Shown one piece after another: positions 3,378-44,808 of a stretch of 64,000 nt of DNA. A program made the position numbers and the translations under genes. Where the stretch lies: IMG/VR virus record IMGVR_UViG_3300008954_000037, one strand, 5' to 3'. The notes beneath the pieces are model-generated. The model had not been told where the DNA came from. It searched no databases and saw nothing but the letters and a program-made list of their open reading frames with translations. The number at the start of each line of letters is the position of its first letter. Positions within the stretch are counted from its first letter, which is position 1. This stretch comes from an uncultured virus (IMG/VR IMGVR_UViG_3300008954_000037). Its lineage: Duplodnaviria; Heunggongvirae; Uroviricota; Caudoviricetes.

Positions 3378-3947
3378 ATGCAATTCATTGAGAAGCTCGG
3401 AGTGTTCCCGAATAGCAGCACGAGGCCCCGTAAGGCGATCCCACGCCTCATCGTCATCCACTACAGCTACACACACTCCCCGACCAGCACGGTCAACGTG
3501 CTGAACAACAAGGGCCTCTCGACCCACTTTGAGGTCGACAAGTACGGCAACGTCTACAGGTACGTCGACCCCGCCAAGCGGTTCGCCTTCCACGGCGGCA
3601 AGCTGAACAGCCGTAGCATCGGCATCGACGTGACCAGCACGGGCACCTTCACCTCCACCCAGATCGACAGCGTTCGCCGGCTCGTCACCTACCTGTGCAA
3701 CCGCTTCAGCATCCCCCAGGTCGTCGCCCCGGACGGGGTGAAGTACACCAACCTCGGCCAGATCGAAGCAGCCGGTGTGGGCATCCTCCGACACCGCAAC
3801 CTACGCCCCACGCAGTGCCCTGGCACCTTCCCCATGGAGGAAATGGCCAAACCCCTGGGCGAAGGGCTGGCGACGTGGGAGAAGGCCGCCCTGGTCGCCG
3901 CCGGCATGGCCGCGTTCTGGCTGTGGCGCCGAAGGAGACGAACATGA
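3378..3947 (+). CDS. N-acetylmuramoyl-L-alanine amidase (Amidase_2) with C-terminal TM anchor
   Basis: IVIHYS, STHFEV, AFHGG..NSRSIGID, HR..PTQCPG motifs; hydrophobic tail followed by RRRRR. Confidence 0.85.
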   Translation: MQFIEKLGVFPNSSTRPRKAIPRLIVIHYSYTHSPTSTVNVLNNKGLSTHFEVDKYGNVYRYVDPAKRFAFHGGKLNSRSIGIDVTSTGTFTSTQIDSVRRLVTYLCNRFSIPQVVAPDGVKYTNLGQIEAAGVGILRHRNLRPTQCPGTFPMEEMAKPLGEGLATWEKAALVAAGMAAFWLWRRRRRT

Positions 3948-4663
3948 ACGACGAGTGCGCGTGGTGTGGCGCTGAGATCCTCCCCGGACACGACTACCGC
4001 AACCGCCTGGACGAGGTGTTCTGCACCAAAGCTCATCGCAGCGCCAGCAACCGGGCGCTGTCCCGGCTCACCGGCAGAACGATGACCCAGATGGTCAAGG
4101 ACCGTAAATCGAAACTCAGAAAACGTCGCAACCCGGTCCACGCCGCCGGTCCTGGCTGTTACCAGTGGGGCAGCCAGAAGGTGTACTGCGGCCCCGGCGC
4201 CGAGGGCAAGGCCACCCGCCAGGGCCGGGCCATCCGGGCGACGGGCTGGAGGGAACGCAACCCCAAACCCATCGGCCAATGCTTCCCCTGGGCCTACCGC
4301 TACCTCCGCGAACACCCGGACGCCATCTTGCTTCAAGGGACCGTCGAGGAGCCGTTCTCTGACCCTCCGCACCGCTACTGGCATGGCTGGGTGGTCCACG
4401 AAGGCAAGATCAAGGACTGGCAGACGATGGAAGGACCGATGGCGGGCGGCATGAAATACGGGGGCGTGGGCTGGCCCATCCCCCTGTGGATGGACATGCA
4501 CAAGCCTCGTGACGTGAGGGAATACGACCGCGACGAGGCGCTGGATGCCCTCGCCTACTGCCGGCACATGGGTCCGTGGCACGGCCCATACGCTGCCGGC
4601 CTCACCGAAGGAGGGTTCCAGGGTCGGACGCTCCCTGAGCCTGACGACTGGGATGATTGGTAG
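3944..4663 (+). CDS. NP-delimited modular protein: Zn-finger-like N-terminus + papain/transglutaminase-like (C-H-D) domain
   Basis: ATGA overlap with the amidase, RBS aaggag. CAWC..FC; RRNP and ERNP linkers; GQCF..HGWV..DWQT..HMGPW. Confidence 0.65.
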   Translation: MNDECAWCGAEILPGHDYRNRLDEVFCTKAHRSASNRALSRLTGRTMTQMVKDRKSKLRKRRNPVHAAGPGCYQWGSQKVYCGPGAEGKATRQGRAIRATGWRERNPKPIGQCFPWAYRYLREHPDAILLQGTVEEPFSDPPHRYWHGWVVHEGKIKDWQTMEGPMAGGMKYGGVGWPIPLWMDMHKPRDVREYDRDEALDALAYCRHMGPWHGPYAAGLTEGGFQGRTLPEPDDWDDW

Positions 4664-4665
4664 CC

Positions 4666-5730
4666 ATGAGTCGACGACCTGCTGAGGACACCTATCCCAT
4701 CACGCCGGACTACATCCCGTCGCCCGGTGACATGATCTATGTGCGCCGTGACGGCGCCCTGGAGGGCCGCTTCATCCTGGCCACGGACATGGGCATGACC
4801 TCACGCGACGAGCAGCAGTGGCGGGCCCTGTCGGTCACAGGCAAGGCATACGGCGTGGAGTTGTCGAACCACAGGACGCCGACCAAACCTCGGGCCATGC
4901 ACATCGTGCATGTGGAGATGGGGCGATCGTTCTACGGCGACTGGACCAGCACCTACTCACGCCACCACTCGCTGCCCTACACCGACGCCCAGGCGTATAA
5001 CTGGGCGACCAGCCCGCGCCCTCTGCGCCTCAGCGGGCACCGAGACCCCCGTGTCGACGGCATCTTCCGCCGGGCCTATCGCAAGTTTCGCAAGGCATTC
5101 CCCGCGATAGGCGTGGTGAAGCTGGTGCTGACCGACCGGCACTTCTTGCCGCCTGACGAGTTGACGGCGCGGGATGTGGCGTGGTTCGACGACGACCTTC
5201 GCACGGTGTTCATCCACACCGCCGCTCTGGATCACGACGACGCGACGTTGGAGGGGCTCATCTGGCACGAGTTGGGGCACGCCGCCGAAGCGGACCTTGA
5301 CGCGCCGGAGTGCGAAGCCAGGGCTGATCACCTCGCCAAGCTGGCGATCGGGCGCCCCGTTCGCTACACGGAGGGCGGCATGCAAAACTCTCAACGAGGC
5401 GAGCCCGAGCGCCCGGCGTGGCTTCATCGCAACCCGAGGGCCGAGGTCCGCACCATCTTCGTGACCGGCGACGGGGGGCTGTGGCGGCTCAACCGCGCCG
5501 CCATCAAGGCGGTGGCCAGGGGGGCCAACTGGTACGACGTGGGCGTGGAGACAGCGACCTACCAGAGTATCCACACCGGCAAGTGGCACAAGCTGCCCAA
5601 GGCCCTGTACTGGTCCGAGGATATGCGCCACCCCGAGTCAGCAGAGGACGGCGTTCTGGTCGTCTCCTACGACTACCCCGATGAGATCACCGCAGCGGCT
5701 CGCAGGGCTTTCCCCCCGCGCCGGAGGTAG
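4666..5730 (+). CDS. Modular protein with zincin (HExxH) metallopeptidase-like domain
   Basis: WHELGH..CEARAD; an HRNP linker precedes the C-terminal domain. Confidence 0.6.
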   Translation: MSRRPAEDTYPITPDYIPSPGDMIYVRRDGALEGRFILATDMGMTSRDEQQWRALSVTGKAYGVELSNHRTPTKPRAMHIVHVEMGRSFYGDWTSTYSRHHSLPYTDAQAYNWATSPRPLRLSGHRDPRVDGIFRRAYRKFRKAFPAIGVVKLVLTDRHFLPPDELTARDVAWFDDDLRTVFIHTAALDHDDATLEGLIWHELGHAAEADLDAPECEARADHLAKLAIGRPVRYTEGGMQNSQRGEPERPAWLHRNPRAEVRTIFVTGDGGLWRLNRAAIKAVARGANWYDVGVETATYQSIHTGKWHKLPKALYWSEDMRHPESAEDGVLVVSYDYPDEITAAARRAFPPRRR

Positions 5731-5781
5731 CTTGTGGATGACGTAATCGAGGGCTGTCAGCCCATCCCCAGGCCGGTGCCG

Positions 5782-8811: not shown

Positions 8812-8894
8812 AGGGGAGCCTCCTGCACGACAAGCCTTGACGTGCGCGTTACAAGTTTTACCCTGCGCTGGGGATTTCTGATAGGGGAGTATCC

Positions 8895-12805: not shown

Positions 12806-13639
12806 ATGGCCACGAAGCGACTTGGAGCGGCGAAGAAGCGCCGTCGTAACTCGACCCTGATCGCCAACCCTCGTCGCAAGAAGCGCAAGCGCAAGGCCAA
12901 CCCCACCGCCAAGCATCGTCGGCGCAAGTCGGCAGCCCCCAAGCGTCGGCGCAAGACGACCCTGGCCAAGCGGGGCAACCCCCGCCGCAAGCGCGCTCTC
13001 GCGCGCCGCAAGGCACGTCGGAATCCCGGCGGCAACGGCAACTTCAAGTCCATGCTGAAAGACCTGCCGATCTTGGAGATCGCGGTCGCAGGCGCGACAG
13101 CCATCTTCGTGTCCAACCTCGTCGCAGGCGTCCCCTTCGTGTCGAAGAAGATCGGTGAGATGGAGGAAGGCACCACCAAGGACATCGTCGGCGGCCTCGT
13201 CGGCCCCACCGTCACCTTCGCGGCAGGTCTGGGCGTGATGCACTTCGCCAGCAAGCAGAAGTCGGCCAAGGCCAAGAAGATCGGTCAATTCATCGCCTAC
13301 GCGGCGCTGTTCCAGGCCACCAACGCCGTCGTCGGCGCGCAGGTCAAGAAGGGTGTCGCGTCCGTTCTCAAGACCATCGCGGGCGACGAGGACGCCCCCA
13401 CTGCCCCCACTGCCCCCACTACCACTTCGGGCAAGAAGGGTACCGATCTTGATGGCGGTTTCGGCGGCGCGTGGATCGGCCCGAGCGGCGCCCAGTACGG
13501 CGGTCTGCTCGGCGCGGCTGCGTACTTCACCCCCGACGACGACGACTTCGGTGGCGCCTATATGTCGGACGACTTCGGTGGCGCCTATATGTTGCCTGAC
13601 ACCCCCATCAAGATCGCCGGATTCGGCGGCTTCAACTAG
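12806..13639 (+). CDS. Putative core/DNA-condensing membrane protein (R/K-rich NP-repeat N-terminus, hydrophobic middle, FGGAY repeats)
   Basis: Extremely basic first ~75 aa with four NP motifs; 2-3 hydrophobic helices; DDFGGAYM twice (13541-13592); directly upstream of the putative capsid gene. Confidence 0.7.
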   Translation: MATKRLGAAKKRRRNSTLIANPRRKKRKRKANPTAKHRRRKSAAPKRRRKTTLAKRGNPRRKRALARRKARRNPGGNGNFKSMLKDLPILEIAVAGATAIFVSNLVAGVPFVSKKIGEMEEGTTKDIVGGLVGPTVTFAAGLGVMHFASKQKSAKAKKIGQFIAYAALFQATNAVVGAQVKKGVASVLKTIAGDEDAPTAPTAPTTTSGKKGTDLDGGFGGAWIGPSGAQYGGLLGAAAYFTPDDDDFGGAYMSDDFGGAYMLPDTPIKIAGFGGFN

Positions 13640-14443: not shown

Positions 14444-14476
14444 TCCACGACGCCCGCCACGTCAAGACGACCGACT

Positions 14477-14507
14477 GGGGGCGGGTGCCATCTCGGCGCT
14501 CGCCCCC
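14477..14507 (+). terminator. GC-rich stem-loop after putative capsid gene
   Basis: GGGGGCGGGTGCC-atctc-GGCGCTCGCCCCC 13-bp stem with G-U pairs; weak U tail. Confidence 0.55.
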
Positions 14508-14530
14508 TCGTCGTTCTAACGGAGTGAACC

Positions 14531-15064: not shown

Positions 15065-15111
15065 CAGCAACGCGAGCGTAGCCGCTGCCGCCCGCCCATA
15101 GGAGCGCAGCG

Positions 15112-15582: not shown

Positions 15583-15944
15583 TGCTCGGTGCAGTCCTCA
15601 ACAAGCTGGTCCGAATCCTGCCGATGGTCACGGAGGCCGAAGCGCGTGACCAGTCGGCGGTATCGTCTGGCGGCGGCACGACGACCTCGATCATCGCCTC
15701 GCTGCCCACCATCCACGCCAGGGAGTTGGCGGTGGCGGTGGCCAGCGATCAGGATGTCACGCTGGTCAAGCGCATCAAGGGCTTGGCTCGGGGCATCACC
15801 GTCGATCGGACGGTGGCGGTGACTGGCGGCACCAACCTGTTCAATCAGGACACGGATGGTCTCGGGCAGGAAGTTGAGATCTTGGTCACCAACTCCAGTG
15901 GCAGCACGGCGACGGTGAGCATCTGGGCAGCGGCCCGCATGTAG
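15582..15944 (+). CDS. Beta-rich putative structural protein
   Basis: TGATG coupling; VTNSSGSTATVSIW strand pattern. Confidence 0.55.
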   Translation: MLGAVLNKLVRILPMVTEAEARDQSAVSSGGGTTTSIIASLPTIHARELAVAVASDQDVTLVKRIKGLARGITVDRTVAVTGGTNLFNQDTDGLGQEVEILVTNSSGSTATVSIWAAARM

Positions 15945-29342: not shown

Positions 29343-29975
29343 ATGGCCCGTGACAAGTACCGATACCGCGTGACCGGACCCAAGGGTGGCAAGTACCTGA
29401 CCACCACGCGCGCCGAAGCCGAGAAGCTCACGCGCAATGGCGGTAGTTTCCGCGTCATCGGACAGCGCAAGGCGTCCAAGGTCAGCAACCCCCACAAAGA
29501 GCAGGAATGCCCTGGTTGCGGCGGCTGGGGCCACGACGGAACCTGCGGCTGGTGTGGCGGCTCGGGGACCGTCCCGCCGCGCTCTGAGGCGTATCGCTTC
29601 TACGAGTGGGCTCACGGCCTCAGCAACGTCGACCTGTACCACTACTGGGCCCAGGCGCTCGATGTGCGCCACCAGAGCCCCCGCAACCTCGCCAAGTGGA
29701 AGGCCCTGTCAGCCGAGGTGGAGCGGCGCAAGAAGAACAAGCGCAGGGCGAAGAACCCCGGACACGGAGGGCTGGCGAAGATCCTCAAGCGCCGCAACCC
29801 AGACCTGTCCAACATCCCCACCGAGACCCTGGCCAGCTACATGGATATGCTGCAACAGTCCCACGGCGTCAACAGAGACGCCTACACGGCCCAGGAGCGC
29901 GAAGGCGCCAAAATCATAGGCAACGAGTTGCGAAGCCGAGGCTACGACGACCTGCCCGCATTTGCACGGCGTTAG
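29343..29975 (+). CDS. Tagged modular protein 6 (CxxCxGxG Zn-binding module)
   Basis: Tag variant; CPGCGGWG..CGWCGGSG; AKNP and RRNP linkers. Confidence 0.85.
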   Translation: MARDKYRYRVTGPKGGKYLTTTRAEAEKLTRNGGSFRVIGQRKASKVSNPHKEQECPGCGGWGHDGTCGWCGGSGTVPPRSEAYRFYEWAHGLSNVDLYHYWAQALDVRHQSPRNLAKWKALSAEVERRKKNKRRAKNPGHGGLAKILKRRNPDLSNIPTETLASYMDMLQQSHGVNRDAYTAQEREGAKIIGNELRSRGYDDLPAFARR

Positions 29976-29987: not shown

Positions 29988-31892
29988 ATGACACGACGAC
30001 GCAACCCCCCGGCAGCATGGACGATGCACAATCCTTCCGGGCGCAGGGCGCCCGCCTCGCGTCGTCGAGGCAAGCGCCGCAACGCCGAGGAGATGGGCAG
30101 CACGGAGAACGTGGGCTGGTCGACCCTCAAGGAGTACGGCGACACATGGAAGGAGGCGTACTGGCGTGAGTTGGTTCAGAACAGCGTGGACGCCGGGGCG
30201 ACTCAGATCGACCTGTACGTCGAGGAGATCGGAGACGGCAACTTCATCGCCGGCTGCAAGGACAACGGCCACGGCATGACCGAGGAGGTCTTCCGGGGTA
30301 AGTTTCTCAAGCACGGTGGCACGACCAAGGTGTCGGGCTCTGGCGCCGCAGGAGGCTTCGGCGCCGCCAAGCGGCTGCTCCTGGCGCCGTGGGTGCAGTG
30401 GCAGATGCGCTCGGGCGACGTGGTGGCGGTGGGCCAGATGAGCCGGCACGAGGTCTGGGTCAGGGGCGAGCGCGTCACCCAAGGCCCCCAGGAGTTCAAC
30501 TTCCCGCCGCAGTGGCGGGGCAAGCCGTCCGTCAAGGGCGTCATCTTTGAAGCCGTCATGTCGCCTGAGCGGCACACGGACGCGGTCGCCGCACGGACGT
30601 GGCTGTCCAAGTGCTACCTGCCCCGCATCACGGTGAAGGTGGACGGCGTCAAGGCGCATGCACGGCTGAACCCACGCTCTGAGATGGGCACGGCCTTCTC
30701 GGTGCCCGTGATCGGCTACTCCATCAAGAACAAGTCGCCCTTTGACGACTCCTATGTGCTGGTCCGCACGGTCAGCGGGCCCAAGAAGGATAAGAAGCTG
30801 GCGATGTTCACCCAGAGGATCAGCAACAAGGTCGGGCGCGTCGTCGTGCTGGAGTTGCAGAGCCATAGCGTCAAATACCTCAAGGCCAGCCGCAACGACG
30901 CCGATGGGTGGTTTCGATACGAGATGTTGGAGTTGATCCAGAAGCTCAACATCAACCCCCGCAGCGCCATCAAGGGGCCCGAAAAGTACCAGAAGATCTT
31001 TTGGGGACCGGACGGCAACTACCGGGCCAGGATCAAAGCCGCAGAACGCGCCGACGCGATCAAGTCTGCTGCGGTTCTGGGGCCCACCGGAGAGGTAGGG
31101 GGCGGCCTCTCCGGTGAGCAGGCCGAGACCATCGAGGACGCGGTCGAGCGGGTGCGTGGAGAGGTGCAGAAGGAGGAGCGCGAAAAGTCGAAGTGGGAGA
31201 AGGAGGAGGACAAGAAGGAAAAGACCTTCCAGCCCGCCACCGAGGCCGCGACGAAGGTGATCGTGCAGGAGGCCGGCATCGACACCCCGGAGCAGCAGGA
31301 GGCGTTGGTGCGCCAGTTGGTCTGGACGCCCAACTTCTTCCTGTACAGCGACATCGACGGCTACAAGGTGCCGCGCAAGTATCGCCCGGTGACCATGGGC
31401 AAAGGGCCCAAGGAGTTGATGGAGGCGTGGGTTGAGATATGCCGCTACGTTCTCGTCCTGCTCGGCTGCCCCTTCCAGTACGGCGTGGGCTACATCTTCA
31501 GCGACAGCACCGCCGCCGCGTACACCTACCAGGGCGACGAGAATGGCCCCAACACGCACTGGCTGCTGCTGAACCCGCACAAGGACTTCAAGGAGATCTT
31601 GACAGGCAAACCACCGCTGTGGAACCTCAAAAAAGAAGAAGACTTGCGCTGGGTCTACGCCTGCGCGGTCCACGAGGCCACACACATGGCCAACGGCATC
31701 TCCGACCACGATGAGGAGTTCACCAGCGCGTTCACGCACAACATCGCCAAGTGCGCTGATGGGTTCACTCGCGTCAAAGAGCTGCTCGGTTACGCGCCGC
31801 CCAAGAAGGCTGACCGCTCAGGCCGGCTGCCGGCGCGGCGGGGACGGCGGGTCACTGTCGATCCCAAGCAGCGTGGCCTGTTCGATTTCTGA
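29988..31892 (+). CDS. GHKL (HSP90-like) ATPase fused to C-terminal HExxH metallopeptidase-like domain
   Basis: RELVQNSVDAG, DNGHGM, GGFG motifs; VHEATH..HDEEF; basic RRNP leader. Confidence 0.8.
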   Translation: MTRRRNPPAAWTMHNPSGRRAPASRRRGKRRNAEEMGSTENVGWSTLKEYGDTWKEAYWRELVQNSVDAGATQIDLYVEEIGDGNFIAGCKDNGHGMTEEVFRGKFLKHGGTTKVSGSGAAGGFGAAKRLLLAPWVQWQMRSGDVVAVGQMSRHEVWVRGERVTQGPQEFNFPPQWRGKPSVKGVIFEAVMSPERHTDAVAARTWLSKCYLPRITVKVDGVKAHARLNPRSEMGTAFSVPVIGYSIKNKSPFDDSYVLVRTVSGPKKDKKLAMFTQRISNKVGRVVVLELQSHSVKYLKASRNDADGWFRYEMLELIQKLNINPRSAIKGPEKYQKIFWGPDGNYRARIKAAERADAIKSAAVLGPTGEVGGGLSGEQAETIEDAVERVRGEVQKEEREKSKWEKEEDKKEKTFQPATEAATKVIVQEAGIDTPEQQEALVRQLVWTPNFFLYSDIDGYKVPRKYRPVTMGKGPKELMEAWVEICRYVLVLLGCPFQYGVGYIFSDSTAAAYTYQGDENGPNTHWLLLNPHKDFKEILTGKPPLWNLKKEEDLRWVYACAVHEATHMANGISDHDEEFTSAFTHNIAKCADGFTRVKELLGYAPPKKADRSGRLPARRGRRVTVDPKQRGLFDF

Positions 31893-31912: not shown

Positions 31913-34129
31913 ATGAGCAAGTGGAAATATGAGATCTACGTCCGGGGAGCCCTCTTTGCCAGGGCCACCACGCGCCGGGAGGCCGATCAGGTCGCCCTGG
32001 AGTATGGCGGCACCGTCAAGGTCAAGAGGTCGCCCAAGCGCAACCCTCTGGACGCCTCACCGAAGACGGTCAGGCGCAAGCCGTCGCGCCAGCAGGTCGA
32101 TCCGAAGGTCGCCAGCCAGATGACGCTCGGATTTGGCGGCCCGATGCAGGCCCAGATGGAGACGAAGCAGGCCCAGAAGGAGCGCGCCAGGATGCTGTCT
32201 TGGAAGCGCGCCTCTCGGGCCAAGAAGGGTAAGATCCAATACCAGAGCGTGGCGCCGCCTCGACCCCCCTACCGCTCCAACATCGAGGTGCGGGACGCGG
32301 GCAACGAGGTCGAGGTGCTGATGGATCGGGGGCCGGACTGGTCCCGCATGTGGGGCGTCATCGGCCCGGCGGCTGGGGAGTTGGGCAAGCCGACCAAGGC
32401 GCGCAACAGTTGGCTCGTGCTGAAGCGTGACTGGCCTACGGTGGGCAAAGACCTGCTGGACATCCCCGGCCTGGACCCAACCAACGTAGAGGCGCTGAAC
32501 AAAGCCCTGGAGAGGGAAAATCGCGCCGCGCACAAGCTGGCCAGGGCGGCCCGGTACACCCCGCTGGAGATGTCTTCCGACATCAAGCTGCTGCCGTGGG
32601 ACGAGAATGGGGATCCCATCCCTGGCGGCTATCAAGAGGAGGGCATCAGGTTTTTGATGGCTCGGGCCACCGCGTTGCTGGGCGACGACATGGGCCTGGG
32701 CAAGACCCTTCAGGCCATCGTGGCGGCTGACAACGCGCCGGGGATCAAGCGTGAGCAGATTCTGGTCCTGTGCCCGCCCTCCGTCGCCCAAAACTGGGCC
32801 ACCGAGATCGTCAAGTTTGTCGGTAAGACCGTCTACGTCATCCGCAACACCACCGACGTGCCGCCTGTGCGTACCCGGTTCGTGGTCTGCGGTTACGCCG
32901 CCGCGTTCTACGCCACCGGCACGGTCAAGCCTTGGATCTTGAACCACGACTGGGGCCTCACCATTCTGGACGAGGCGCACAGCGCCAAGAAGCCGCGCAC
33001 GCTCATCCACGGGCTCGTCCACAAGTTGGAGACGAAGCGTCTGTGGCTGTTGACCGGCACGCCGATCCCCAACAAGGTCATAGACTTGTACGGCCAGCTT
33101 CGCTTGGGGCGTCACGAGTTGGGTCAGAGCCGCGAGCAATTCATGAAGCGGTACGGCAAGCGGATCACGAGCCCGCTGACCGGGGACACCAACTTCGACG
33201 AGTTGGCTGACCGTATGAGCGGCTGGATGCTGCGCCGGACCAAGGCCGAGGAGTTGGAGGATTTTCTGCCGGAGAAGATCGTGAGCGTGGTGCCGGTCGA
33301 GGTGCCCACGACGCTCAAAAAGGGTCGCGAGGGTTTGAAGCTCGGTGTTGTTGAGCAGTTGCGCGGCAAGCTGGCCAAGGCCAAGGCCAAGGGGACGTGG
33401 GACTTCGCGCTCAAGGTTCTCAAGGCTGGCAAAGGCAAGAATTGGAAGGGCCCCCAAGGTCGCAAGATCGTCCTGTTCAGCGGCTACAACGCCCCCCTGG
33501 ACTACTTCAAGGCCAAGGCCAAGAAGGCGGGGCTGAACGCGGTTGAGATCCGAGGCGATGTCACCGACCCGGACCAGCGGGAGATCGCCAAGCGTATGTT
33601 CCAGGGCGAGAGCCTGCTGCTGGACACAGTTGATGCGGACGGCAACATCGTGCCCGACAACCGGCTGCTCAAGAAGGCCAAACGCAAGTACGGGGCCTCG
33701 GCGTTCACGCCAGACGGGAGGACCAAGATCAACGTCCAGATCTTCCTGGGCAACCTCGTCAGCGCGGGTGAGGGCATCACCCTGACGGCGGCGCAAGATC
33801 TCATTTTCAATGATCTCGACTACATGCCTTCAAGGCACCTCCAGGCCGAAGACCGCGTGTACAGGGTGGGGGCCGACAAGGACAAGGATGTCAACATCTA
33901 CTACATGCTCAGTGAGTCCGTGCTGGACACCGATCTGTGGGAGATGATCAAGGACAAGATCCAAGACACCGTCGACATCTACGAGGGTCTCGGTGACCCC
34001 GAAGCCGCCTCACAGGCCGCCCGCGCAGAGTTTCATCGCCGGCTCACCGGCAAGGCCATCAAGAACCCGGCCCACCGCAACCCCTACGATGGTTGGCGTC
34101 AGCGCGTCATGACCACAAAATTTGAGTAA
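31913..34129 (+). CDS. SNF2-family helicase 1 with degenerate N-terminal tag
   Basis: DDMGLGKT, DEAH, LTGTPIPN, RRTK, GEGITLT, QAEDRVYRVG. Confidence 0.9.
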   Translation: MSKWKYEIYVRGALFARATTRREADQVALEYGGTVKVKRSPKRNPLDASPKTVRRKPSRQQVDPKVASQMTLGFGGPMQAQMETKQAQKERARMLSWKRASRAKKGKIQYQSVAPPRPPYRSNIEVRDAGNEVEVLMDRGPDWSRMWGVIGPAAGELGKPTKARNSWLVLKRDWPTVGKDLLDIPGLDPTNVEALNKALERENRAAHKLARAARYTPLEMSSDIKLLPWDENGDPIPGGYQEEGIRFLMARATALLGDDMGLGKTLQAIVAADNAPGIKREQILVLCPPSVAQNWATEIVKFVGKTVYVIRNTTDVPPVRTRFVVCGYAAAFYATGTVKPWILNHDWGLTILDEAHSAKKPRTLIHGLVHKLETKRLWLLTGTPIPNKVIDLYGQLRLGRHELGQSREQFMKRYGKRITSPLTGDTNFDELADRMSGWMLRRTKAEELEDFLPEKIVSVVPVEVPTTLKKGREGLKLGVVEQLRGKLAKAKAKGTWDFALKVLKAGKGKNWKGPQGRKIVLFSGYNAPLDYFKAKAKKAGLNAVEIRGDVTDPDQREIAKRMFQGESLLLDTVDADGNIVPDNRLLKKAKRKYGASAFTPDGRTKINVQIFLGNLVSAGEGITLTAAQDLIFNDLDYMPSRHLQAEDRVYRVGADKDKDVNIYYMLSESVLDTDLWEMIKDKIQDTVDIYEGLGDPEAASQAARAEFHRRLTGKAIKNPAHRNPYDGWRQRVMTTKFE

Positions 34130-34666: not shown

Positions 34667-37600
34667 ATGAGCGATGTTCGGACAGCGAAGGGTTGGTACA
34701 AGGGCGGTTGGCGCTATCACGCCACGTCGTCTGATGGTCAGATCGCGCTCACCACGACGATGGCCGAAGCGGTCAAGATCGGCGGGGGCAACCGCGTCTG
34801 TCAGATCACCGCCGCCGGCAAGCTCAAGCCCCTGCGGCGGGAGCAGATGAAGAAGGCCAACCCTCGACGCCCCACCGCCGCGCAGACGTTCTACCTCGAC
34901 GGGGAGAAGACGACCTGGGCGCAGTTTGCCAAGGCCAACAAGGACGACCCGGACACGCTGGCAGAGGTGCAGGAGTGGCTCCAGGGCCCGGCCCCGGACC
35001 TGTGGCTCGGTGGTGGCGCCTGGGCCAGCTACTTCCTGACCAAGCGGCGCTCCAACCCCGACGACGCGGCGCCCAAGGCCAAGCCCAAGAAGCGCAAATG
35101 GAAGAAGTCCACCCACACGGCCCGCGTGCTGGAGCCTCGGACGCTGACCCACGCTGAGATCGGAGCCCTCACCCACGCCGCCGCGTGGCTGTACGACGCT
35201 CAGATCGACGCCCAGAAGATCAAGGACGACACAGGCTTCTCCAACGCCGACCTGACCGTGGGCGCCATCGCCCGAGAGCCCGAGTTTTGGACCACCGCCG
35301 ACCCCGAGGTGATGGCTGGCGCAGCCCTGGTCATGCGGAAGTACCGCGATCAGGCCGGACCCGAGGTCTATGACGCAGCGCGGCAGGCCATGGTCAACGC
35401 TGGCGTGGACGAGTTGGACAAGGCGCAGGCGAAAAGGGCGCGCAAGGCCATCAGCCACGTCGCCAAGCGGCGCACCATCACCACATCCAAGACCCGCGCC
35501 AACGAGTTGAAGCGGGTCTACGTCGAGCGGGAGGGCGCCGTCCTCGACATCTTCCGTGACGCGGCGAGCAAGGCGCTGGGCAACATCATCAGGGACGTGT
35601 GGCCTCGTGGCCGCTACATGATGAACCGCAGCAACTGGCACTGGGAGGTGGCCTACACCACCGCCAGCGAGTGGCAGGAGTTTGTGCGACAGGTGCGGGA
35701 CGCCGGGTGGACCATCGTGTTCCCCGACGACACCGAGGCCACCGCACGGGCGACCTACTCCAGCCAGTTGGACTTGGATGGGCTGGCTGAGACCGAGGAC
35801 GAGGCCGCTGCGAAATCTGACTTTGAGATTTTGGGCCTCCGCAACCTCAAGGCGGAACACGCCCTGACCATCATCTGGCCTAACAACAAGCCACAGAGCA
35901 AGGATGTCAACGCGGTCCTCAAGGGCAAGGGCTGGGGCTGGCAGTTTGGTCAGCAGCTTCAGGGGCGCGACGGCAAGTTGCACGACTCCAACAGCGCCAA
36001 CATCCCGTATCGGAGGGTGTTTGAGATCCTCAAGACCTTCGTTCAGAAGGGTTGGCTCGACGTGGAGCGTGGCAACAAGGCCCTGGAGGTCATCGGCAGC
36101 AGCTACCGCCTTGCTGAGGGTGGCGAGCTTGTGGACTTGGAGCCGGACGCGGCGCCTGTGGTCACCGCCACCGTTGAGGTCCGGGGGCGTAGCATTCTGG
36201 TACGCTGGCTCAACGACAGCGACGACAAGTGGGGCTTCCAGGGCGCGTTCAAGGGTAGCGGCTTCAAGTGGGATTGGAAGTCGGACCCGGCCTGGACAGA
36301 GGTGAAGGGCCCGGCCACCAAGTGGGCCAAGTTTGTGGACATCCTCAGCCGGAGCCCGCAGCCCGCGCTGGCGCAGACGCTCAAGGAGGCGTTGGGTCAG
36401 TCCATCGGCCCTGCCGTGGACCCGACCAGGGCCAAGCTGGTCATGCCGGCGCGCGTCAAGCTCTACGACCATCAGGAGCCGGGCATCCGCTTCCTCATGG
36501 GGCGCGACACCGCGCTGTTGGCTGACGACATGGGCCTGGGCAAGACGTTGGAGGCCATCATCGCCGCTGAGACGGTGGTGCCGGCTGGCAAGAAGATTCT
36601 GGTCGTCTGCCCCGCCTCGGTGACCCACAACTGGGCTGAGGAGGTGCTGAAGTGGTCGGACGTGCCCGCCAGCAAGATCAACGTCCTGATCAGCAAACCC
36701 GTCCAGAAGCGCCCCATCGAGTCCAGCACCATCAAGCGCAACGCGCGCTGGGTCATCGTCAGCTACGCCTCGGGGCGCAAGACGATGAAGAAGAAACTCG
36801 ACGCGGTGGACTGGGGCGCGGTCATCTTCGATGAGGCGCACCGCACCAAGAACACCAAGACGCAGAACCACAAGATGGCCGCTGGCCTGCACGCAGGGCG
36901 CAAATGGCTGTTGACCGGCACCGCGATGCAAAATCGACCCGCCGATCTCTGGGGGATCATTCGGGTTTTGGACCATCCGCTCACCCGCATGAGAGAGCGG
37001 CTGTGGATGGATGGGATCACCTCCTACGGCGAGCGGACCCGGCGCGGCGGCGGCAAGCGTGAGTTTAGGGGTTGGGAAGCCTTCATGGTCAAGTACGCCG
37101 ATGGTTGGCAGGGCAAGTGGGGCTGGGAGACCAAGGGCGCCAGCAACACCGCCGACCTGTCGGCCAAGATGTCGGATGCCATGTTGCGTCGGACCAAGGA
37201 CGAGGTCTTGGACCTGCCCGGCAAGAATCGCATCGATCGGCGCGTCATCGTGCCTTCGGGGCTGGCCAACAGGGGTTTCAAGGACATCGGTGAGTTGTCC
37301 AAGCTGCGCGGTCAGTTGGCGGCGGCCAAGGCGTCGGCCACCATCGAGGCGGTCAAGGACGTGCTGGAGGCTGAGGACAAGGTGGTGGTGTTCAGCGGCT
37401 ACATCAAGGTGCTGGACGACCTTCAGAAGGCGTTGACCAAGGCTGAGATCGGCTGGGTTCGCGTGGATGGCAGCGTCACTGGGGCTGCTCGTCAGCGGGC
37501 CGTCAAGGCGTTCCAGACCGATCCCAGCGTCCGGGTGTTCATCGGTCAGATCGTGGCCGCTGGTGAGGGCATCACGTTGACCAAGGCTCGGACGGTCATT

Positions 37601-37879
37601 TTCAACGACTACGCGCTTGTGCCGGCCACCCACAGCCAAGCGGAAGACCGCATTTATCGCATCGGCCAGACGGCGTCACAGCCGGTGTCGATCGTGTACA
37701 TGGAGTCTAATGCGACGTTGGATGAGATCGTGGGCGACATGCTCAAGCATAAGATGTCGATGATCGACAGGTTTGAGGGGGGTCTGGTGCCTCCGGGGGC
37801 CGGTGAGATCACCTTCGCAGATCTCCGCGCCGCCATGGCTTCCGAGTCACAGAGAAACCCAAAGCGATTGTGGAGGTAG
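34667..37879 (+). CDS. SNF2-family helicase 2 (1070 aa) with degenerate tag and NP-delimited N-terminal modules
   Basis: ADDMGLGKT, DEAH, LTGTAMQN, GEGITLT, QAEDRIYRIGQ. Confidence 0.9.
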   Translation: MSDVRTAKGWYKGGWRYHATSSDGQIALTTTMAEAVKIGGGNRVCQITAAGKLKPLRREQMKKANPRRPTAAQTFYLDGEKTTWAQFAKANKDDPDTLAEVQEWLQGPAPDLWLGGGAWASYFLTKRRSNPDDAAPKAKPKKRKWKKSTHTARVLEPRTLTHAEIGALTHAAAWLYDAQIDAQKIKDDTGFSNADLTVGAIAREPEFWTTADPEVMAGAALVMRKYRDQAGPEVYDAARQAMVNAGVDELDKAQAKRARKAISHVAKRRTITTSKTRANELKRVYVEREGAVLDIFRDAASKALGNIIRDVWPRGRYMMNRSNWHWEVAYTTASEWQEFVRQVRDAGWTIVFPDDTEATARATYSSQLDLDGLAETEDEAAAKSDFEILGLRNLKAEHALTIIWPNNKPQSKDVNAVLKGKGWGWQFGQQLQGRDGKLHDSNSANIPYRRVFEILKTFVQKGWLDVERGNKALEVIGSSYRLAEGGELVDLEPDAAPVVTATVEVRGRSILVRWLNDSDDKWGFQGAFKGSGFKWDWKSDPAWTEVKGPATKWAKFVDILSRSPQPALAQTLKEALGQSIGPAVDPTRAKLVMPARVKLYDHQEPGIRFLMGRDTALLADDMGLGKTLEAIIAAETVVPAGKKILVVCPASVTHNWAEEVLKWSDVPASKINVLISKPVQKRPIESSTIKRNARWVIVSYASGRKTMKKKLDAVDWGAVIFDEAHRTKNTKTQNHKMAAGLHAGRKWLLTGTAMQNRPADLWGIIRVLDHPLTRMRERLWMDGITSYGERTRRGGGKREFRGWEAFMVKYADGWQGKWGWETKGASNTADLSAKMSDAMLRRTKDEVLDLPGKNRIDRRVIVPSGLANRGFKDIGELSKLRGQLAAAKASATIEAVKDVLEAEDKVVVFSGYIKVLDDLQKALTKAEIGWVRVDGSVTGAARQRAVKAFQTDPSVRVFIGQIVAAGEGITLTKARTVIFNDYALVPATHSQAEDRIYRIGQTASQPVSIVYMESNATLDEIVGDMLKHKMSMIDRFEGGLVPPGAGEITFADLRAAMASESQRNPKRLWR

Positions 37880-37883: not shown

Positions 37884-40727
37884 ATGGCTCCGACCCCAAA
37901 TCAAGTCGCACAGTGGACCGCCGAGGGGTGGCGCTACTACGTCCCCTCAGCCGGCGTGCTGACGACCACCAAGCGCGAGGCCGAGAGGTACGCGAAGGGG
38001 TCGAAGATCTACGCCCTGGTCAAGCCCGGCAAGGCGAGGGTGCGACACGCCTCCCGCAAGACTGACCGCTTCGACGAAGACCCCGGCGTGTGTGGCCAGT
38101 GCGGCGACCCCATGCACTACTGCCAGTGCGATTTCGGCTGGAACACCCACTACGAGGGCTGGGGCAAGGACCACCAGTACGAGGGCGAAGCCGCCCGGAA
38201 GCGCCGCCAGCGCCGGGACAAGGCCGGCAACCCCATCGCCCCCGACTGGTGGTGGGATGCGTGGAAGGTGATTGACAAGGAGGCCGACAAGCTCGTCAAG
38301 ATCAAACGCGCCACCGGCAACCGCTCGGCCCAGGCGCTCAAGCAGAAGGCCAAGGTCGAGAAGTTGGAGAGGGCCGCCTACGCCCGCCGTGAGCGACTTT
38401 TGGCGGAAAAGGGCAACAAGAACCCCCAGAGGGGCAACAAGAGGGGTCGTGCTGCCCCCTCGGCCTCCAGGCGTCGGCGCAACCCGAAGCGGGTGCCTGT
38501 CGGAGACTGCTTCGCCTGGGCTTCCAAGCGGGTGGGCGAGAGGGACATCGACTGGTCTGACCCGGACATCAACGTGGTTCACGCCACCGTCGCGCCGAAG
38601 TGGCACGACCGCCCCTACGAACACGCCTGGGTGGAGATGCACGGCAAGGCGTTCGACTGGCAGACGCACAGTACCAAGCCCGAGGGCCTCTCGATCAAGG
38701 ACTTCTACGATCACTATCAGCCGATCAAGGCCACCATTCAGCGATACTCTCCAGAGGAGGCGGTGCTGTATCCGATGCCCGCACATGCGGGGCACTACGG
38801 CCCCTGGACGGACACTCCCCGCCCTAAAGGGCGCATCAAGCGGCGCAACCCTGCCGATCAGGTCGACCTGTTCGCCGGATTCGCTCAGAAGCCGCGTAAG
38901 GCCCGCAAGGCGTCCAAGGCGTCCACCAAAGCGTCCAAACCCCCGAAAACGGCTCCAGCGCGCTCTCAGGCGCCGCAACCGGGTGTTCTGTGCGACCCTG
39001 GACCTCTGATCAAGGAGCGCACGTCGGCGGGTCCGATTTCGGACGCGGCTCTGCCCGACCACAGCATCGCGGAGACAACGTGGAAGGTGGTGGACCTGTC
39101 CAAGCTGTTGTGGAGCAACCAGTGGAACAACGGCGAGACCATCACCGCCTACCCCAAGGTCTACCAGCCTCGGGATCGGCGCCGCCCGTCCTACCGCGAC
39201 CAGCACCGCGACATCGTCAAGTATTTCAACCCTGAGATCTTGATGTGGGCCGCTACCGCCCAGCAGGGCGCCCCCATCGTGGTGGACGACCCGAAACTGT
39301 CCAAGAAGCTCATCGTGGCCAGTGGCAACGGTCGGACGATGGCCCTGGCCGAGATCTACCTCCGCACAAAGCCCGGCAGCAAGACCGCCCCGGTGTGGCC
39401 TGGGAAGCAGAAGGCGTACAGGGACGAGTTGAACCGCTGGTCGAGCCTGCTGGGTATCACGATCCCGGCCAACATCAAGCATCCGGTCCTCGTTCGGGTA
39501 CTCGACAGCAGCGTGGACGGCCCGCACTTCGCCCGGTTGGCCAACGAGACCCTCATCGCGGAGTTGAACGCCACCGAGCAGGCCATCAAGGACGCCAACA
39601 AGATGTCGTTCGCGGTGGCCGACAAGTACGTCCCGTTCACCGCCAAGACGGACAAGGAGACGGGCATTGTCACCTACAAACCTGTCAACGTGGGCGGCCC
39701 GAAGAACAAGCCTTTCGTGGAGGCGTTCATCCGCACGGTGGCCGGCGAGGGTGCCCGAAACGAGTTGATGACGGTCACCCCACAGGGGAAGCCGAAGTTG
39801 TCCGACACCGGCATCCAGCGCATCGAGTACGCGCTGTTCCGATTCGCCTACGGGTCGGCGGTGGACGATGTGCTGATCTACCTGACGGAGCAGGAGGTGC
39901 CTACGGCATCGTCGCTGTTGCGCGGGTTGATGTGGTCGGCGGCGTACTGGATCGCCTTTGAGCGTGAGGTGCGTGAGGGTCGTATGGAGGAGCGGTATGA
40001 CCTGCGGAAGTCGTTGGTCACGGCGGTGCTGAGGGCGATGCGGTCCAAGGAAAACTTCGGCCTGACCCCCATCGAGGCGGCGTGGAGCCACGACCTGTAT
40101 GCGGGGGATGTGGAGTCTGACAACATCGAGGTGTACTGGATGCGGGCGTTCTACCGGGCGATCCCTGGGAAGATCTCCAACACCTCCCTGGCCGACGTGT
40201 GCCGCGAATACTGCGCCGAGGCCATCGCCATCTCCTCGCCGGCTGCGCTGGCCAGCACGCAAAACTTCGACCTGTTCGGCGTTGTCGGAGAGGTCAAGGA
40301 ACGCGCCGCTGCGGCGGCGACGTTGCCCCCTTCGGAGTTTCTGGCCCGGTCTATCGCCACCGCGTTGTTCAACGAACCGTTCGCCCCGCGCTTCACCAAG
40401 ACGGGCAAGGTTGTGCGTGACGTTGAGACCAAGCTGATGCCCACGTCTCTGGCTGATGTGGCCCGGTCGGCTGGAGAGACCCTGTGGGAGATCTGTCAAT
40501 TCTGGGACACCCAGTGGCAGGGTTGGCTCATCGACTGGGCCACCGCCGTCAAGGGGTCCAAACGGCGCCTGACGTTCAAGGCGGCCCGCAAGGAGGCTTG
40601 GCGCTGGTTCCAGATTGGCGTGCGCCCCAACCAGCGGCAGGACAACATCAAGGCGTTCGACAGGCACATCAAAGGCAACGCAGTCTACGCCGCAGCAGAC
40701 AAGGCGTGGAAGGCATCGCTCAAGTGA
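37884..40727 (+). CDS. Polyvalent protein: degenerate tag, Zn finger, papain-like domain, DdrB-like ParB domain
   Basis: Start MAPTP with RBS ggagg; YQPRDR..GAPIV..SGNGRTMAL..PVLVR..FARLAN ddrB-ParB pattern; GDCF..HAWV..DWQT. Confidence 0.8.
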   Translation: MAPTPNQVAQWTAEGWRYYVPSAGVLTTTKREAERYAKGSKIYALVKPGKARVRHASRKTDRFDEDPGVCGQCGDPMHYCQCDFGWNTHYEGWGKDHQYEGEAARKRRQRRDKAGNPIAPDWWWDAWKVIDKEADKLVKIKRATGNRSAQALKQKAKVEKLERAAYARRERLLAEKGNKNPQRGNKRGRAAPSASRRRRNPKRVPVGDCFAWASKRVGERDIDWSDPDINVVHATVAPKWHDRPYEHAWVEMHGKAFDWQTHSTKPEGLSIKDFYDHYQPIKATIQRYSPEEAVLYPMPAHAGHYGPWTDTPRPKGRIKRRNPADQVDLFAGFAQKPRKARKASKASTKASKPPKTAPARSQAPQPGVLCDPGPLIKERTSAGPISDAALPDHSIAETTWKVVDLSKLLWSNQWNNGETITAYPKVYQPRDRRRPSYRDQHRDIVKYFNPEILMWAATAQQGAPIVVDDPKLSKKLIVASGNGRTMALAEIYLRTKPGSKTAPVWPGKQKAYRDELNRWSSLLGITIPANIKHPVLVRVLDSSVDGPHFARLANETLIAELNATEQAIKDANKMSFAVADKYVPFTAKTDKETGIVTYKPVNVGGPKNKPFVEAFIRTVAGEGARNELMTVTPQGKPKLSDTGIQRIEYALFRFAYGSAVDDVLIYLTEQEVPTASSLLRGLMWSAAYWIAFEREVREGRMEERYDLRKSLVTAVLRAMRSKENFGLTPIEAAWSHDLYAGDVESDNIEVYWMRAFYRAIPGKISNTSLADVCREYCAEAIAISSPAALASTQNFDLFGVVGEVKERAAAAATLPPSEFLARSIATALFNEPFAPRFTKTGKVVRDVETKLMPTSLADVARSAGETLWEICQFWDTQWQGWLIDWATAVKGSKRRLTFKAARKEAWRWFQIGVRPNQRQDNIKAFDRHIKGNAVYAAADKAWKASLK

Positions 40728-43387: not shown

Positions 43388-43422
43388 AATCTGAGTTTCG
43401 ATTTCCGAGAGAGGAGAACAAA

Positions 43423-44406
43423 ATGACTGTCAAGTTTCTGAACCCTGCCGTGGCATCTGAGGCTGTCATCAGCCACGCCGCCAACATGCTCCCCGAGGCC
43501 AACCCGGCGCCCGACAACGCCGAGGAGTTGCACATCGTCGACTACGACCGTGAAGCCGTGCTGCTCCAGGCGCCGTCTGGCTGGGTGCCCGGTGAGGAGG
43601 CCGACTTCCGAGGTCAGGGTCCGAAGGGTGAGTTGTCCAAGGCCGCCCGCGAACACGCCAAGGAAGAAAACCTGAAGCTGTACAGCGGCAACAAGCGGAT
43701 CAATCCCTCCAGGCCCCGTGGTCGAGCCATCACGCTCAATCAGGCCAAGAAGCTGCGCCATGGCCAGATCATCTACATGCGCTCCAACCTCAACGCGGAC
43801 GGCACGGCGGTGCGCTGGCGCGTCACCGGGACACCCAAGGTGTGGGTGCGGTCGCCGGAGCGCGTCTCGGTACCCCTCAAGCACGGGATGCGGCATTACG
43901 GTCACCTGACTGAAGACAACCTGAGCCACTTCACCCTCAAGGAGCCGCCACAGGTCAAGAAGGGCCGCAAGCGCAACCCCTCCAGTGACGTACTCTGGGA
44001 GAAGGGCCAGTGGACCTTGCAGGCCATCCCTGTGGGTGACTACGGGCGTACACGGCTGATGCTTGAGAAGACGGGCAAGGACGGTTGGGCCGACGTGATT
44101 GACTACCCGACGCATTACGGCGATGGCAAGATGGGTTATGACCGGCCCGAGGTGATCCCGAAGTCCGTCCAGAAGGCGGTCAGCAAGACCCTGGTCGAGA
44201 TGACAAGGCGTTCTATCGATCACGGCCAGGACAAGAAGGGTCGCAAGAGCCGCAACCCGGCCAAGGGCAAGAAGGCGCCGATCTACCGCTACCACGTCAC
44301 CGGGCCCAGGGGCGGCAAGTACCTCACCTCGACGTTCGACGAGGCGCGGGCGTTGACCAAGAACGGTGGCACCATCAAGAAGTTGAAGAAGCCCTGTAAG
44401 GGATAG
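43423..44406 (+). CDS. NP-delimited modular protein with C-terminal copy of the tag
   Basis: Ends IYRYHVTGPRGGKYLTSTFDEARALTKNGGTIKKL; INP, KRNP and SRNP linkers. Confidence 0.85.
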   Translation: MTVKFLNPAVASEAVISHAANMLPEANPAPDNAEELHIVDYDREAVLLQAPSGWVPGEEADFRGQGPKGELSKAAREHAKEENLKLYSGNKRINPSRPRGRAITLNQAKKLRHGQIIYMRSNLNADGTAVRWRVTGTPKVWVRSPERVSVPLKHGMRHYGHLTEDNLSHFTLKEPPQVKKGRKRNPSSDVLWEKGQWTLQAIPVGDYGRTRLMLEKTGKDGWADVIDYPTHYGDGKMGYDRPEVIPKSVQKAVSKTLVEMTRRSIDHGQDKKGRKSRNPAKGKKAPIYRYHVTGPRGGKYLTSTFDEARALTKNGGTIKKLKKPCKG

Positions 44407-44415
44407 GAGATCATC

Positions 44416-44808
44416 ATGGCACAGAACAAATGGAAGCGTGGCAAGGACTACCCTGGTGGAGAGACCCAATACTCGTGGTGGAAAGGTGGGCGGGCCATTG
44501 CCCACGTCACCAAGCGCGGGAACGTCTGGAGTCTGTCGTTCGGGGGATCCAACCACGGGACGTTCCCCACCGCCAAGGCGGCCAAGGCCGATGCGGAAGC
44601 AACACAGGCCCGCATGGAGGCGAGGGCCCGTCGCCACAGGCGTAACCCCTGCAAGGCGCGCAACCCGGCCAAGGGCAAGAAGATCTACAAGTACAAGGTC
44701 GTCGGGCCCAGGGGCGGCAAGTACCTCACCTCGACCATGGCCGAGGCGCGGGCGCTGACCAAGAACGGTGGCACCATCAAGAAGCTGAAGAAACCCCGCA
44801 AGGGGTAG
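44416..44808 (+). CDS. Small modular protein with C-terminal copy of the tag
   Basis: RRNPCKARNP, then IYKYKVVGPRGGKYLTSTMAEARALTKNGG. Confidence 0.85.
   Translation: MAQNKWKRGKDYPGGETQYSWWKGGRAIAHVTKRGNVWSLSFGGSNHGTFPTAKAAKADAEATQARMEARARRHRRNPCKARNPAKGKKIYKYKVVGPRGGKYLTSTMAEARALTKNGGTIKKLKKPRKG

Follow-up and report, generated by a model that had tools for sequence, protein, structure and literature searches.

A recurrent basic Asn-Pro motif joins shuffled protein modules and a shared terminal tag in an uncultured phage-like element

Results

The motif-bearing proteins of the window

We analysed 64,000 nucleotides of the uncultured virus record IMGVR_UViG_3300008954_000037 of IMG/VR (Caudoviricetes), a stretch that is referred to as the window throughout. 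The element is rare, uncultured and phage-like, and the modules of one class of its proteins are nearly always joined by the same motif, basic-x-basic-Asn-Pro (Asn-Pro is written NP below), which we call the joint. These proteins are encoded on the plus strand in a block at 24.2-44.8 kb and by the genes at 3944 and 4666, and several of them share a basic tag at one end. A membrane protein at 12806 carries NP dipeptides in a basic N-terminus. Proteins are named by the first coordinate of their gene. The gene calls are our own and are based on position-specific G+C content, a caveat that applies to all per-gene results; the open reading frame calls at 25477 and 3695 were over-long, the real starts being 25831 and 3944. 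The proteins in question are listed below, where cargo stands for the modules accompanying a tag.

3944..4663, plus strand: 239 residues, untagged; zinc ribbon, 43-residue mini-module and papain/transglutaminase-like module; joints at residues 63 and 106
4666..5730, plus strand: 354 residues, untagged; HExxH module (HELGH), joint LHRNP at residue 256, C-terminal module; ends in PRRR
12806..13639, plus strand: membrane protein, 277 residues; N-terminal ~75 residues are Arg/Lys runs interrupted by four NP
24188..24973, plus strand: putative tagged cargo protein, 261 residues; N-terminal tag (24188-24331) and two modules; joints at residues 49 (RVKNP) and 126 (LHRNP); match to the hidden Markov model (HMM) of the tag, 5.4e-24
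24999..25802, plus strand: putative tagged cargo protein, 267 residues; N-terminal tag (24999-25136) and three modules; basic joints at residues 47, 107 and 174, non-basic NP at 118
25831..26907, plus strand: 358 residues; tag, helical, beta/alpha and acidic modules; joints at residues 48, 149 and 234
26954..28207, plus strand: putative tagged cargo protein, 417 residues; joints at residues 48, 161 and 233
28218..29333, plus strand: putative tagged cargo protein, 371 residues; alternative start at 28179; joints at residues 48, 127 and 275
29343..29975, plus strand: putative tagged cargo protein, 210 residues; joints at residues 49 (KVSNP), 138 and 152; ends in ARR
29988..31892, plus strand: 634 residues, untagged; GHKL ATPase and C-terminal HExxH module
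31913..34129, plus strand: SNF2 helicase, 738 residues; degenerate N-terminal tag; joints at residues 44, 718 and 723; SNF2-rel_dom match 9.7e-34
34667..37879, plus strand: SNF2 helicase, 1070 residues; degenerate N-terminal tag; joints at residues 65, 130 and 1064; SNF2-rel_dom match 6.8e-37
37884..40727, plus strand: polyvalent protein, 947 residues; degenerate tag, zinc-finger/coiled module, papain/transglutaminase-like module (residues 200-321) and DdrB-type ParB
43423..44406, plus strand: putative cargo protein, 327 residues; C-terminal tag (44254-44403) after KSRNP; further joints at residues 94 and 185; tag HMM 6e-22
44416..44808, plus strand: putative cargo protein, 130 residues; C-terminal tag (44662-44805) after HRRNP and KARNP; tag HMM 2.2e-22

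Enrichment and composition of the motif

An initial annotation of this DNA had estimated some 35-40 motifs in these 15 proteins, which is close to the actual count of 48 NP dipeptides, 33 of them [RKH]NP and 39 preceded by a basic residue within two positions. Expected numbers were obtained by shuffling the residues of each protein 1000 times. By this control the 14 proteins that remain when 12806 is set aside (3944, 4666, 24188-29343, 29988, 31913, 34667, 37884, 43423 and 44416) hold 44 NP as against 10.4 expected, and 31 [RK]NP as against 1.7 (shuffle maximum 8), whereas the other 63 called proteins of the window contain [RK]NP 3 times at an expectation of 2.5. Paralogous copies account for about seven of the 31 sites (six N-terminal tag joints, two C-terminal tag joints and one duplicated module); without these copies there are still about 24 independent sites, far over the 1.7 expected. 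In 24188 there are two [RK]NP at an expectation of 0.03. In 12806 four NP stand against 0.55 expected, and its protamine-like N-terminus is cut into blocks by them.

The same enrichment is found outside the window. In 41 non-window proteins retrieved with a profile of the tag (see below), [RK]NP occurs 86 times where 5.0 are expected (maximum of 1000 shuffles 13); these proteins are representatives at 50% identity, several of which are mutually homologous nonetheless. When all 400 dipeptides were ranked in 64 family proteins with the tags masked, NP came first (220 versus 50.7 expected, z 24.5), followed at a distance by RN (z 7.8), and the top tripeptide was RNP (84 versus 3.9 expected). The sequence logo of the motif shows basic residues at positions -3, -2 and -1 in about 60, 47 and 63-73% of sites, then Asn and Pro, and thereafter a weak preference for small or basic residues. 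In the 64 family proteins 196 of the 224 NP have a basic residue at -3 to -1 and 22 have an acidic one, and the mean charge over these three positions is 0.47-0.65 per residue.

The description of the motif as genome-wide was too broad, as it is confined to one functional class of proteins. Not a single [RK]NP is present in any called gene from 44818 to 62904, in line with the near-absence that had been noted for the 48-64 kb genes, and none in those from 13709 to 24024. The near-absence from proteins with a transmembrane anchor, also noted initially, has as exceptions 10469 and 11309, with one site each, and the already mentioned 12806.

A shared terminal tag

Eight window proteins carry a conserved and strongly basic tag of ~45-47 residues, six at the N-terminus and two at the C-terminus. 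The N-terminal tags belong to six consecutive genes (24188 to 29343) and are 78-82% identical to one another, while the C-terminal ones form the ends of 43423 and 44416. Degenerate tags are present at the starts of 31913, 34667 and 37884, which are marginal with the independent profile A3 (E 16, 0.23 and 1.1, respectively); 31913 is also matched by the A1 tag profile (as P0026) but was among the sequences that make up A1. In the AlphaFold model of 25831 the tag adopts a ββαβ arrangement with predicted local distance difference test (pLDDT) values of 60-78. The DNA encoding the tags varies at synonymous sites, and the similarity ends right past the Asn-Pro codons. GGAG-like ribosome-binding sites lie upstream of the tagged genes.

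The tag family is small. A search of 1.84 billion representative proteins with the tag profile gave only 51 matches at E <= 0.001, of which seven are the window's own and one, P0002, is a close recombinant of two window proteins; P0039 and P0045 were dropped as doubtful multi-stretch matches, which leaves the 41 non-window proteins counted above. The motif parts the tag from the cargo at whichever end of the protein the tag sits, and in P0033, where the tag is internal, it is found on either side. Assignment of the tag to DUF7196 (PF23826) was rejected, since the best score was 20.2 bits (E 7e-4) as compared to a gathering cut-off of 27 bits; it came from one C-terminal tag only, that of 44416, and six other tags gave no match. 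The 44416 protein also has a weak match (E 7e-4) to the 68-residue phrog_2069. A more distant branch of the tag family comprises P0040, P0043, P0044, P0048, P0050 and P0051, which have in common a second conserved module of ~50 residues at the C-terminus, preceded by NP; this module may be a second shared end module.

Joints lie at the boundaries of shuffled and autonomous modules

The initial annotation had placed the motif between compositionally distinct modules. This was borne out by all-against-all blastp comparison of the 64 family proteins (tag-containing alignments excluded), in which 62 of 195 homology breakpoints (32%) fall within five residues of a basic-NP, as compared to 8% for random positions, and the alignment ends accumulate on the Pro of the motif. 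From -6 to +5 hydrophobic residues are scarce, and they reappear at +6/+7, which places the joint at the downstream end of a short linker. The following module starts a few residues past the Pro.

For 25831, the proposed order of tag, helical, beta/alpha and acidic modules agrees with the AlphaFold model, which has helices at 62-146, and with PHROG matches. All three joints map to segments with pLDDT below 50, which is weak support given that 55% of the residues of the model are below this value (mean 51.6). A VIA structure search with this model returned generic helical bundles, and a weak PsiB row (Z 6.2) was not used as the region has a pLDDT of ~50. In 37884 the papain-like module lies between RRRNP and KRRNP, and the expected succession of this module and ParB is in accordance with the Pfam match to ddrB-ParB (PF18763, 2.7e-19) and with the fold results given below. 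Both helicases have the motif after their last domain as well, just as had been noted, at residues 718/723 of 738 in 31913 and 1064 of 1070 in 34667.

The modules between the joints occur in many combinations. P0013 is composed of modules of 24999, 24188 and 25831 strung together, and the modules of 24999 recur in other orders in P0005, P0012 and P0013. In P0014 the tag is fused straight to modules three and four of 25831, and in P0047 the 43-residue mini-module of 3944 takes the place of the zinc-finger and papain-like modules of 37884. The relatives of 3944, P0053-P0055, have modules swapped at the joints; of these, P0055 links the HExxH module of 4666 through HRNP to the zinc ribbon of 3944. 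P0025, a relative of 29988, holds a tag exactly between HNP and KNP, where 29988 has none. P0002 consists of the front half of 25831 and the back of 26954, fused at a shared post-joint module, and as judged from its sequence is a natural deletion variant that arose by recombination between duplicated modules.

Three modules are known elsewhere as whole stand-alone proteins that start at the joint. The acidic module of 25831 aligns to residues 8-137 of 141 in phrog_1915, and its stand-alone phage homologues start at query positions 227-265, the joint being at 234; the last module of 28218 aligns to residues 5-87 of 88 in phrog_6004; and the papain-like module exists on its own in P0056 (106 residues). 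The motif can also stand right after the initiator region, as in proteins beginning MTRRRNP or MARRRNP. 29988 begins with MTRRRNP and has HNP at residue 15. P0032, a homologue of 29343, continues beyond the ARR with which the latter ends and does so with NPEIF. In the sense that the motif separates autonomous, shuffled modules, flanks an N- or C-terminal tag and occurs in the same chains as peptidase-like modules, the polyprotein-like grammar proposed at the outset is thus an apt description.

Selection at the joints

Among 61 aligned homologue pairs, covering 24 non-tag sites, NP is retained in 44 (72%), at a flank identity of 46%. The Asn and Pro codons used at the motif follow general usage, and 34 sites are encoded by 13 different 9-mers. 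Arg preceding the motif is encoded by CGC in 20 of 25 cases; as the same codon precedes any other Asn in 25 of 39 cases, this preference is a codon-context effect. These comparisons show that the protein, and not the DNA, is under selection. A DNA repeat or recombination site was ruled out as an explanation because wobble positions vary and codon use is that of the background.

Cargo modules and candidate peptidases

The cargo set includes SNF2 helicases, a DdrB-type ParB, a GHKL ATPase, HExxH modules, papain/transglutaminase-like modules, the acidic phrog_1915 module, zinc ribbons and many small domains without a name. The ATPase part of 29988 matches HATPase_c_3 (1.3e-7) and resembles the N-terminal domain of MutL/PMS2. 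Two HExxH modules are present, one in 4666 and one in the C-terminal part of 29988; the only homologues found for the 4666 HExxH protein were 4666 itself and P0055.

The papain-like module of 3944 and 37884 has invariant Cys8, His42 and Asp53 in the four sequences of alignment A8. In its model (core pLDDT ~80-88) Cys8 opens a helix (8-18) and His42 lies in a strand (39-47). A VIA structure search with this model gave almost exclusively papain/transglutaminase-like proteins, headed by NTAQ1 (3c9q_A; Z 7.0, root-mean-square deviation 3.8, 108 aligned residues) and including LapG (Z 4.9), protein-glutaminase, PeiW, SseI, transglutaminases, staphopain, C39 peptidases and NlpC/P60. A profile search of the PDB gave no match below E 0.5 and Pfam gave none. 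In Atlas the module reached 0.90 with YunG / Phage_YunG-like, which with 146-161 shared features, below the guide value of 170, is a lead only. According to the model, the module is likely to have a papain/transglutaminase-like fold, and its class as a hydrolase is putative.

Relatives of the element and its genomic context

A metagenome scan yielded one true relative, L001, which is syntenic with the window and retains gene order and joints. Its ParB protein is ~79% identical and has different modules between the joints, its orthologue of 34667 retains all joints, an orthologue of 29988 is present, and one of its proteins is, together with P0022, a relative of 43423. Other searches found none: the 24-44 kb region had no megablast match in phage records, tblastn gave no match for 43423 in plasmids and none for 44416 in phages, scans of IMG/VR contigs with the tag alignment and the ParB alignment left none confirmed, and 185,579 species genomes scanned with the 26954 protein yielded no relative. 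A hit of tag alignment A3 in the species genomes, L002, was discarded as a chance match of ~20 residues in an unrelated protein of a Ruminococcus assembly.

The window has a G+C content of 59-65% and a single long train of plus-strand genes from ~8.9 to 50 kb. No transfer RNA was found in a dedicated scan. Its further features are as follows.

43-1857: D5/DUF5906-type primase-helicase, library match
3378-3947: Amidase_2 endolysin-like gene, library match
7450-8946, minus strand: DEAD helicase, library match
10469, 11309, 17170, 18208, 19647, 22543, 23611, 46095, 47163 and 48023 (starts), plus strand: tail-anchored-looking proteins
48.5-55.5 kb: sugar-modifying genes, library matches
55850-56941, minus strand: tyrosine integrase, library match

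In the first 4000 positions G+C falls to 0.589, as compared to 0.61-0.65 in the rest of the window. The open reading frame at 1854-2366 has a poor, low-complexity translation; lying between the primase and a small phrog_824 gene, this stretch may be regulatory or may not code for protein. The protein encoded at 8895-10439 (plus strand, 514 residues) has a very long Glu/Arg-rich helical stretch, acidic ends and no family match; none of its five NP has a basic residue at -1, and an Atlas search with it returned only unnamed viral clusters at scores below 0.9. The basic N-terminus of 12806 (12806-13639, plus strand) is followed by membrane segments and then by C-terminal repeats of the DDFGGAYM type. 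Thereafter comes a run of proteins without family match (13709, 14531, 15112, 15582 and the pair at 15954-16379 and 16389-16811, plus strand); the members of the pair are adjacent and clear paralogues of ~140 residues each, rich in Gly, Ala, Val and Thr. The run at 13709-16811 could encode particle proteins, and a sequence search of the PDB with the 13709 protein found nothing.

Unusually many small proteins of the window end in one hydrophobic helix and a Lys/Arg tail and so look tail-anchored, which suggests a membrane-associated particle or assembly site. One of them, encoded at 19647-20168 (plus strand), has ~24 Gly-Asn repeats ahead of its C-terminal membrane helix and a weak TrAA12-like Pfam match (8.5e-9), and a segment related to its N-terminus is found at 8096-8599 of L001. 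The first ~85 residues of the open reading frame at 20224-21255 (plus strand) are rich in Arg, Ser and Thr and have a non-coding look; its true start is probably the internal Met preceding SKKDQCW. Adjoining the integrase, the cluster at 48573-55568 comprises a glycosyltransferase-like gene, two hexapeptide acyltransferases, a radical SAM/SPASM protein and a second glycosyltransferase, and could be either element cargo or host flank.

Discussion

We tentatively suggest that the proteins of the 24.2-44.8 kb block, together with 3944 and 4666, are tag-addressed cargo chains whose joints are cut by an element-encoded peptidase, a reading in which we place somewhat less than even confidence. The tag would address the chain to the particle or to a transfer complex, the basic-NP joints would be recognition sites for the peptidase, and the latter, for which the candidates are the papain-like module inside the chains and one or other of the HExxH modules, would remove the tag and free the single effectors. 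As all positions after the Pro vary freely, the cut would probably be made at the Asn-Pro bond or just past the Pro. The data themselves establish the motif and its enrichment, its place at module boundaries, the shuffling and autonomy of the modules, the tag, the identities of the domains and selection on the protein. Addressing by the tag, cleavage, the enzyme responsible and delivery to the host are steps that we infer. What favours cutting is the combination of a strict dipeptide with free downstream positions, the position of the motif on the cargo-facing side of the tag, its occurrence behind the initiator region and the presence of peptidase-like modules in the chains. That the element uses a portable two-part grammar as a whole, that is, a movable basic address domain plus a basic-x-basic-Asn-Pro joint cut by a peptidase of new specificity residing inside the chains, is conceivable but rather doubtful. 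If it were true, dozens of shuffled anti-host effectors would be loaded jointly and released singly after entry.

Several results weigh against cleavage of the joints or against the enzymes proposed for it. Position -1 is basic in only 63-73% of sites, which is loose for a protease reading this position, and NP is only slightly in excess near the N-terminus (9 of 60 proteins, 5.2 expected). The RNP of 10469 (residue 77) sits within a match to Transglut_core. The short conserved tails beyond the last joint of both helicases would suit a unit separator equally well. On the side of the enzymes, neither HExxH module has a match in Pfam, PHROG or NCBIfam, and Foldseek found nothing for the papain-like module at E <= 0.001. 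The VIA matches of the latter all have Z below 8 and include amidases and deamidases as well as proteases, so that the fold is likely and its activity putative. In addition, the ParB orthologue of L001 lacks the papain-like module. Scans of 55, 67 and 53 window proteins identified no prohead-protease family (T4 gp21-like, HK97-like or ClpP-like), and none of the window proteins matched a capsid, portal, terminase or tail family in Pfam, PHROG or NCBIfam. With no capsid, portal or terminase recognised in 64 kb, the virion context is itself something that we infer, and the element is called phage-like here.

The data agree about equally well with cleavage and with a repeated signal for docking or packaging. 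In the latter case the chains would stay whole and the joint would be an uncut docking or tether motif for a chaperone, portal, inner-core protein or the packaged DNA, a possibility that we take seriously even though we would not put our money on it. In one version the basic tag and linkers would keep the cargo bound to the genome, with which it would then travel. Such a role would suit the strongly basic character of tag and linkers (the charge at -3 to -1 given above), the protamine-like N-terminus of 12806 interrupted by NP, the conserved tails beyond the last joint, the presence of the motif at the very start of some proteins, where no preceding part could be set free, and the failure of the library scans to detect a protease family in the window. 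However, plain electrostatic binding of DNA needs no invariant Asn-Pro, and reading the motif as an AT-hook was rejected as the AT-hook core RGRP is found 0 times in 64 proteins. A docking motif that is present at every junction, in any order of modules, and brackets a tag at either end would moreover be unusual, and the motif-flanked peptidase-like modules would be left needing another explanation.

We consider it improbable that the joint is a structural connector without a reader, such as an Asx-Pro turn or cap that insulates the folding of neighbouring modules and has been copied along with them by recombination. Many NP do precede a predicted helix or strand start, module shuffling is extensive, and P0002 was born of recombination inside a duplicated module. 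Yet NP is retained well above the identity of its flanks (72% versus 46%), there is no conservation of the joints at the DNA level, and ordinary interdomain linkers are less uniform across non-homologous junctions. Furthermore, the modules after the joint start variously as helix or strand, which makes a single capping role unlikely.

Even less credible, to our mind, is self-cleavage of the Asn-Pro bond through a succinimide, without any protease and perhaps faster in the particle or on DNA. The motif has no invariant residues other than Asn and Pro, and autocleavage at this bond occurs in FlhB, but uncatalysed Asn-Pro cleavage is slow. The self-cutting Asn-Pro bond established in RsgI is, in the portion of the work cited, part of a folded domain, where it occupies the turn connecting two strands (PMC10328401), whereas the NP described here are in hydrophilic linkers before unrelated modules. 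The FlhB/YscU-type reading was rejected as NPTH makes up 1 of 224 NP and the NP do not lie inside one conserved fold, and 2A-like skipping (D-x-E-x-NPGP) was dismissed since 3 of 224 NP are NPGP and none of the 224 is in the context [DE]xExNPG.

A literature search found nothing on the motif as a cleavage site, only unrelated rRNP papers; a search on DUF7196, the Pfam family nearest the tag, found no paper, and the broader literature on phage ejection proteins and polyproteins yielded only the known systems compared below. The family provides an explicit candidate for the cutting signal and another for the address tag, both legible in the sequence itself, and, with every junction marked, module boundaries, substrate list and candidate enzymes become testable at the bench. 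If the joints are cut, they would reveal a new protease specificity and a natural plug-and-play loading of proteins into particles, and would mark many small modules as probable anti-defence effectors. If they are not, this is still an unusually strict interdomain motif in need of a reader.

Comparison with known systems

Adenovirus and African swine fever virus, DNA viruses of eukaryotic hosts, process polyproteins with a cysteine protease of the papain superfamily that is packaged in the particle. Short motifs of the Gly-Gly-X type recur in the core proteins and are the sites at which these are cut; strongly basic proteins that condense the DNA are among the substrates. In phage T4, IPIII carries a capsid targeting sequence as a terminal address, which is taken off by the prohead protease gp21. 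The prohead protease gp245 of SPN3US is described in the sections drawn on here as cutting after A-X-E at 14 sites in nine head proteins, and many ejection proteins of this phage as being cut at the short motif by the prohead protease (PMC10052503). As far as these accounts go, T4 and SPN3US thus have a short terminal address and a protease that reads a three-residue motif in many head and ejection proteins, some of them cut repeatedly. Different from both, the motif of the element is basic-x-basic-N-P and not x-x-Glu, its tag is a predicted folded domain of ~45 residues that can sit at either terminus, its joints divide functional modules and do not serve the trimming of propeptides, and no prohead protease of the T4 or HK97 type was found in the window.

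An invariant Asn-Pro as a breaking point, which for the element is only proposed, is familiar from another group of proteins. Autocleavage of RsgI has been likened, in the part of the paper used here, to the Asn42-Pro43 cut of reovirus mu1 and aquareovirus VP5 (PMC10328401). In this group, to which FlhB/YscU with NPTH also belongs, the dipeptide forms part of a turn within a single conserved fold and the fragments do not separate, whereas in the element it lies in basic linkers between unrelated modules.

In phage P1, 30 residues at the N-terminus of DarB are enough to direct it to the capsid and DdrB is a head protein, according to the portion of the source consulted (PMC9024508). On this partial account, the Dar system resembles the element in having large helicase proteins and a DdrB-type ParB for which packaging and injection are likely, and a terminal packaging signal, which in the element would be the tag. 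It differs in consisting of single giant chains that have no shared tag family and, within what the source covers, no known repeated joint motif.

Close parallels exist with the polyvalent proteins of phages and conjugative elements described by Iyer, Burroughs, Anand, de Souza and Aravind (2017), for which delivery with the DNA and processing by built-in peptidases have been predicted and among which P1 DdrB is said, in the sections used here, to be processed ahead of head packaging (PMC5512222). Shared with them, on the same partial basis, are the SNF2 helicase, the DdrB-type ParB, candidate peptidase modules (built-in zincin- or papain-like peptidases there) and mosaic architectures. Several unrelated domains per chain are present in 37884, 29988 and 25831, the last with four modules, and signature domains are recognised at PF18763 (2.7e-19) and PF00176 (9.7e-34 and 6.8e-37). 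As to a zincin-like metallopeptidase, HExxH motifs occur in 4666 and in the C-terminal part of 29988, and these have no family match. As to a late or virion location, an endolysin-type amidase, a D5-type primase and an integrase are present, and no capsid, portal, terminase or tail family was recognised. The sections of that paper drawn on here name no cleavage or junction motif (PMC5512222), whereas the element has an invariant joint, and its domains are spread across about a dozen shorter chains with one common end tag. Packaged or delivered multi-effector proteins are already known; what is new here is an explicit joint motif together with a tag.

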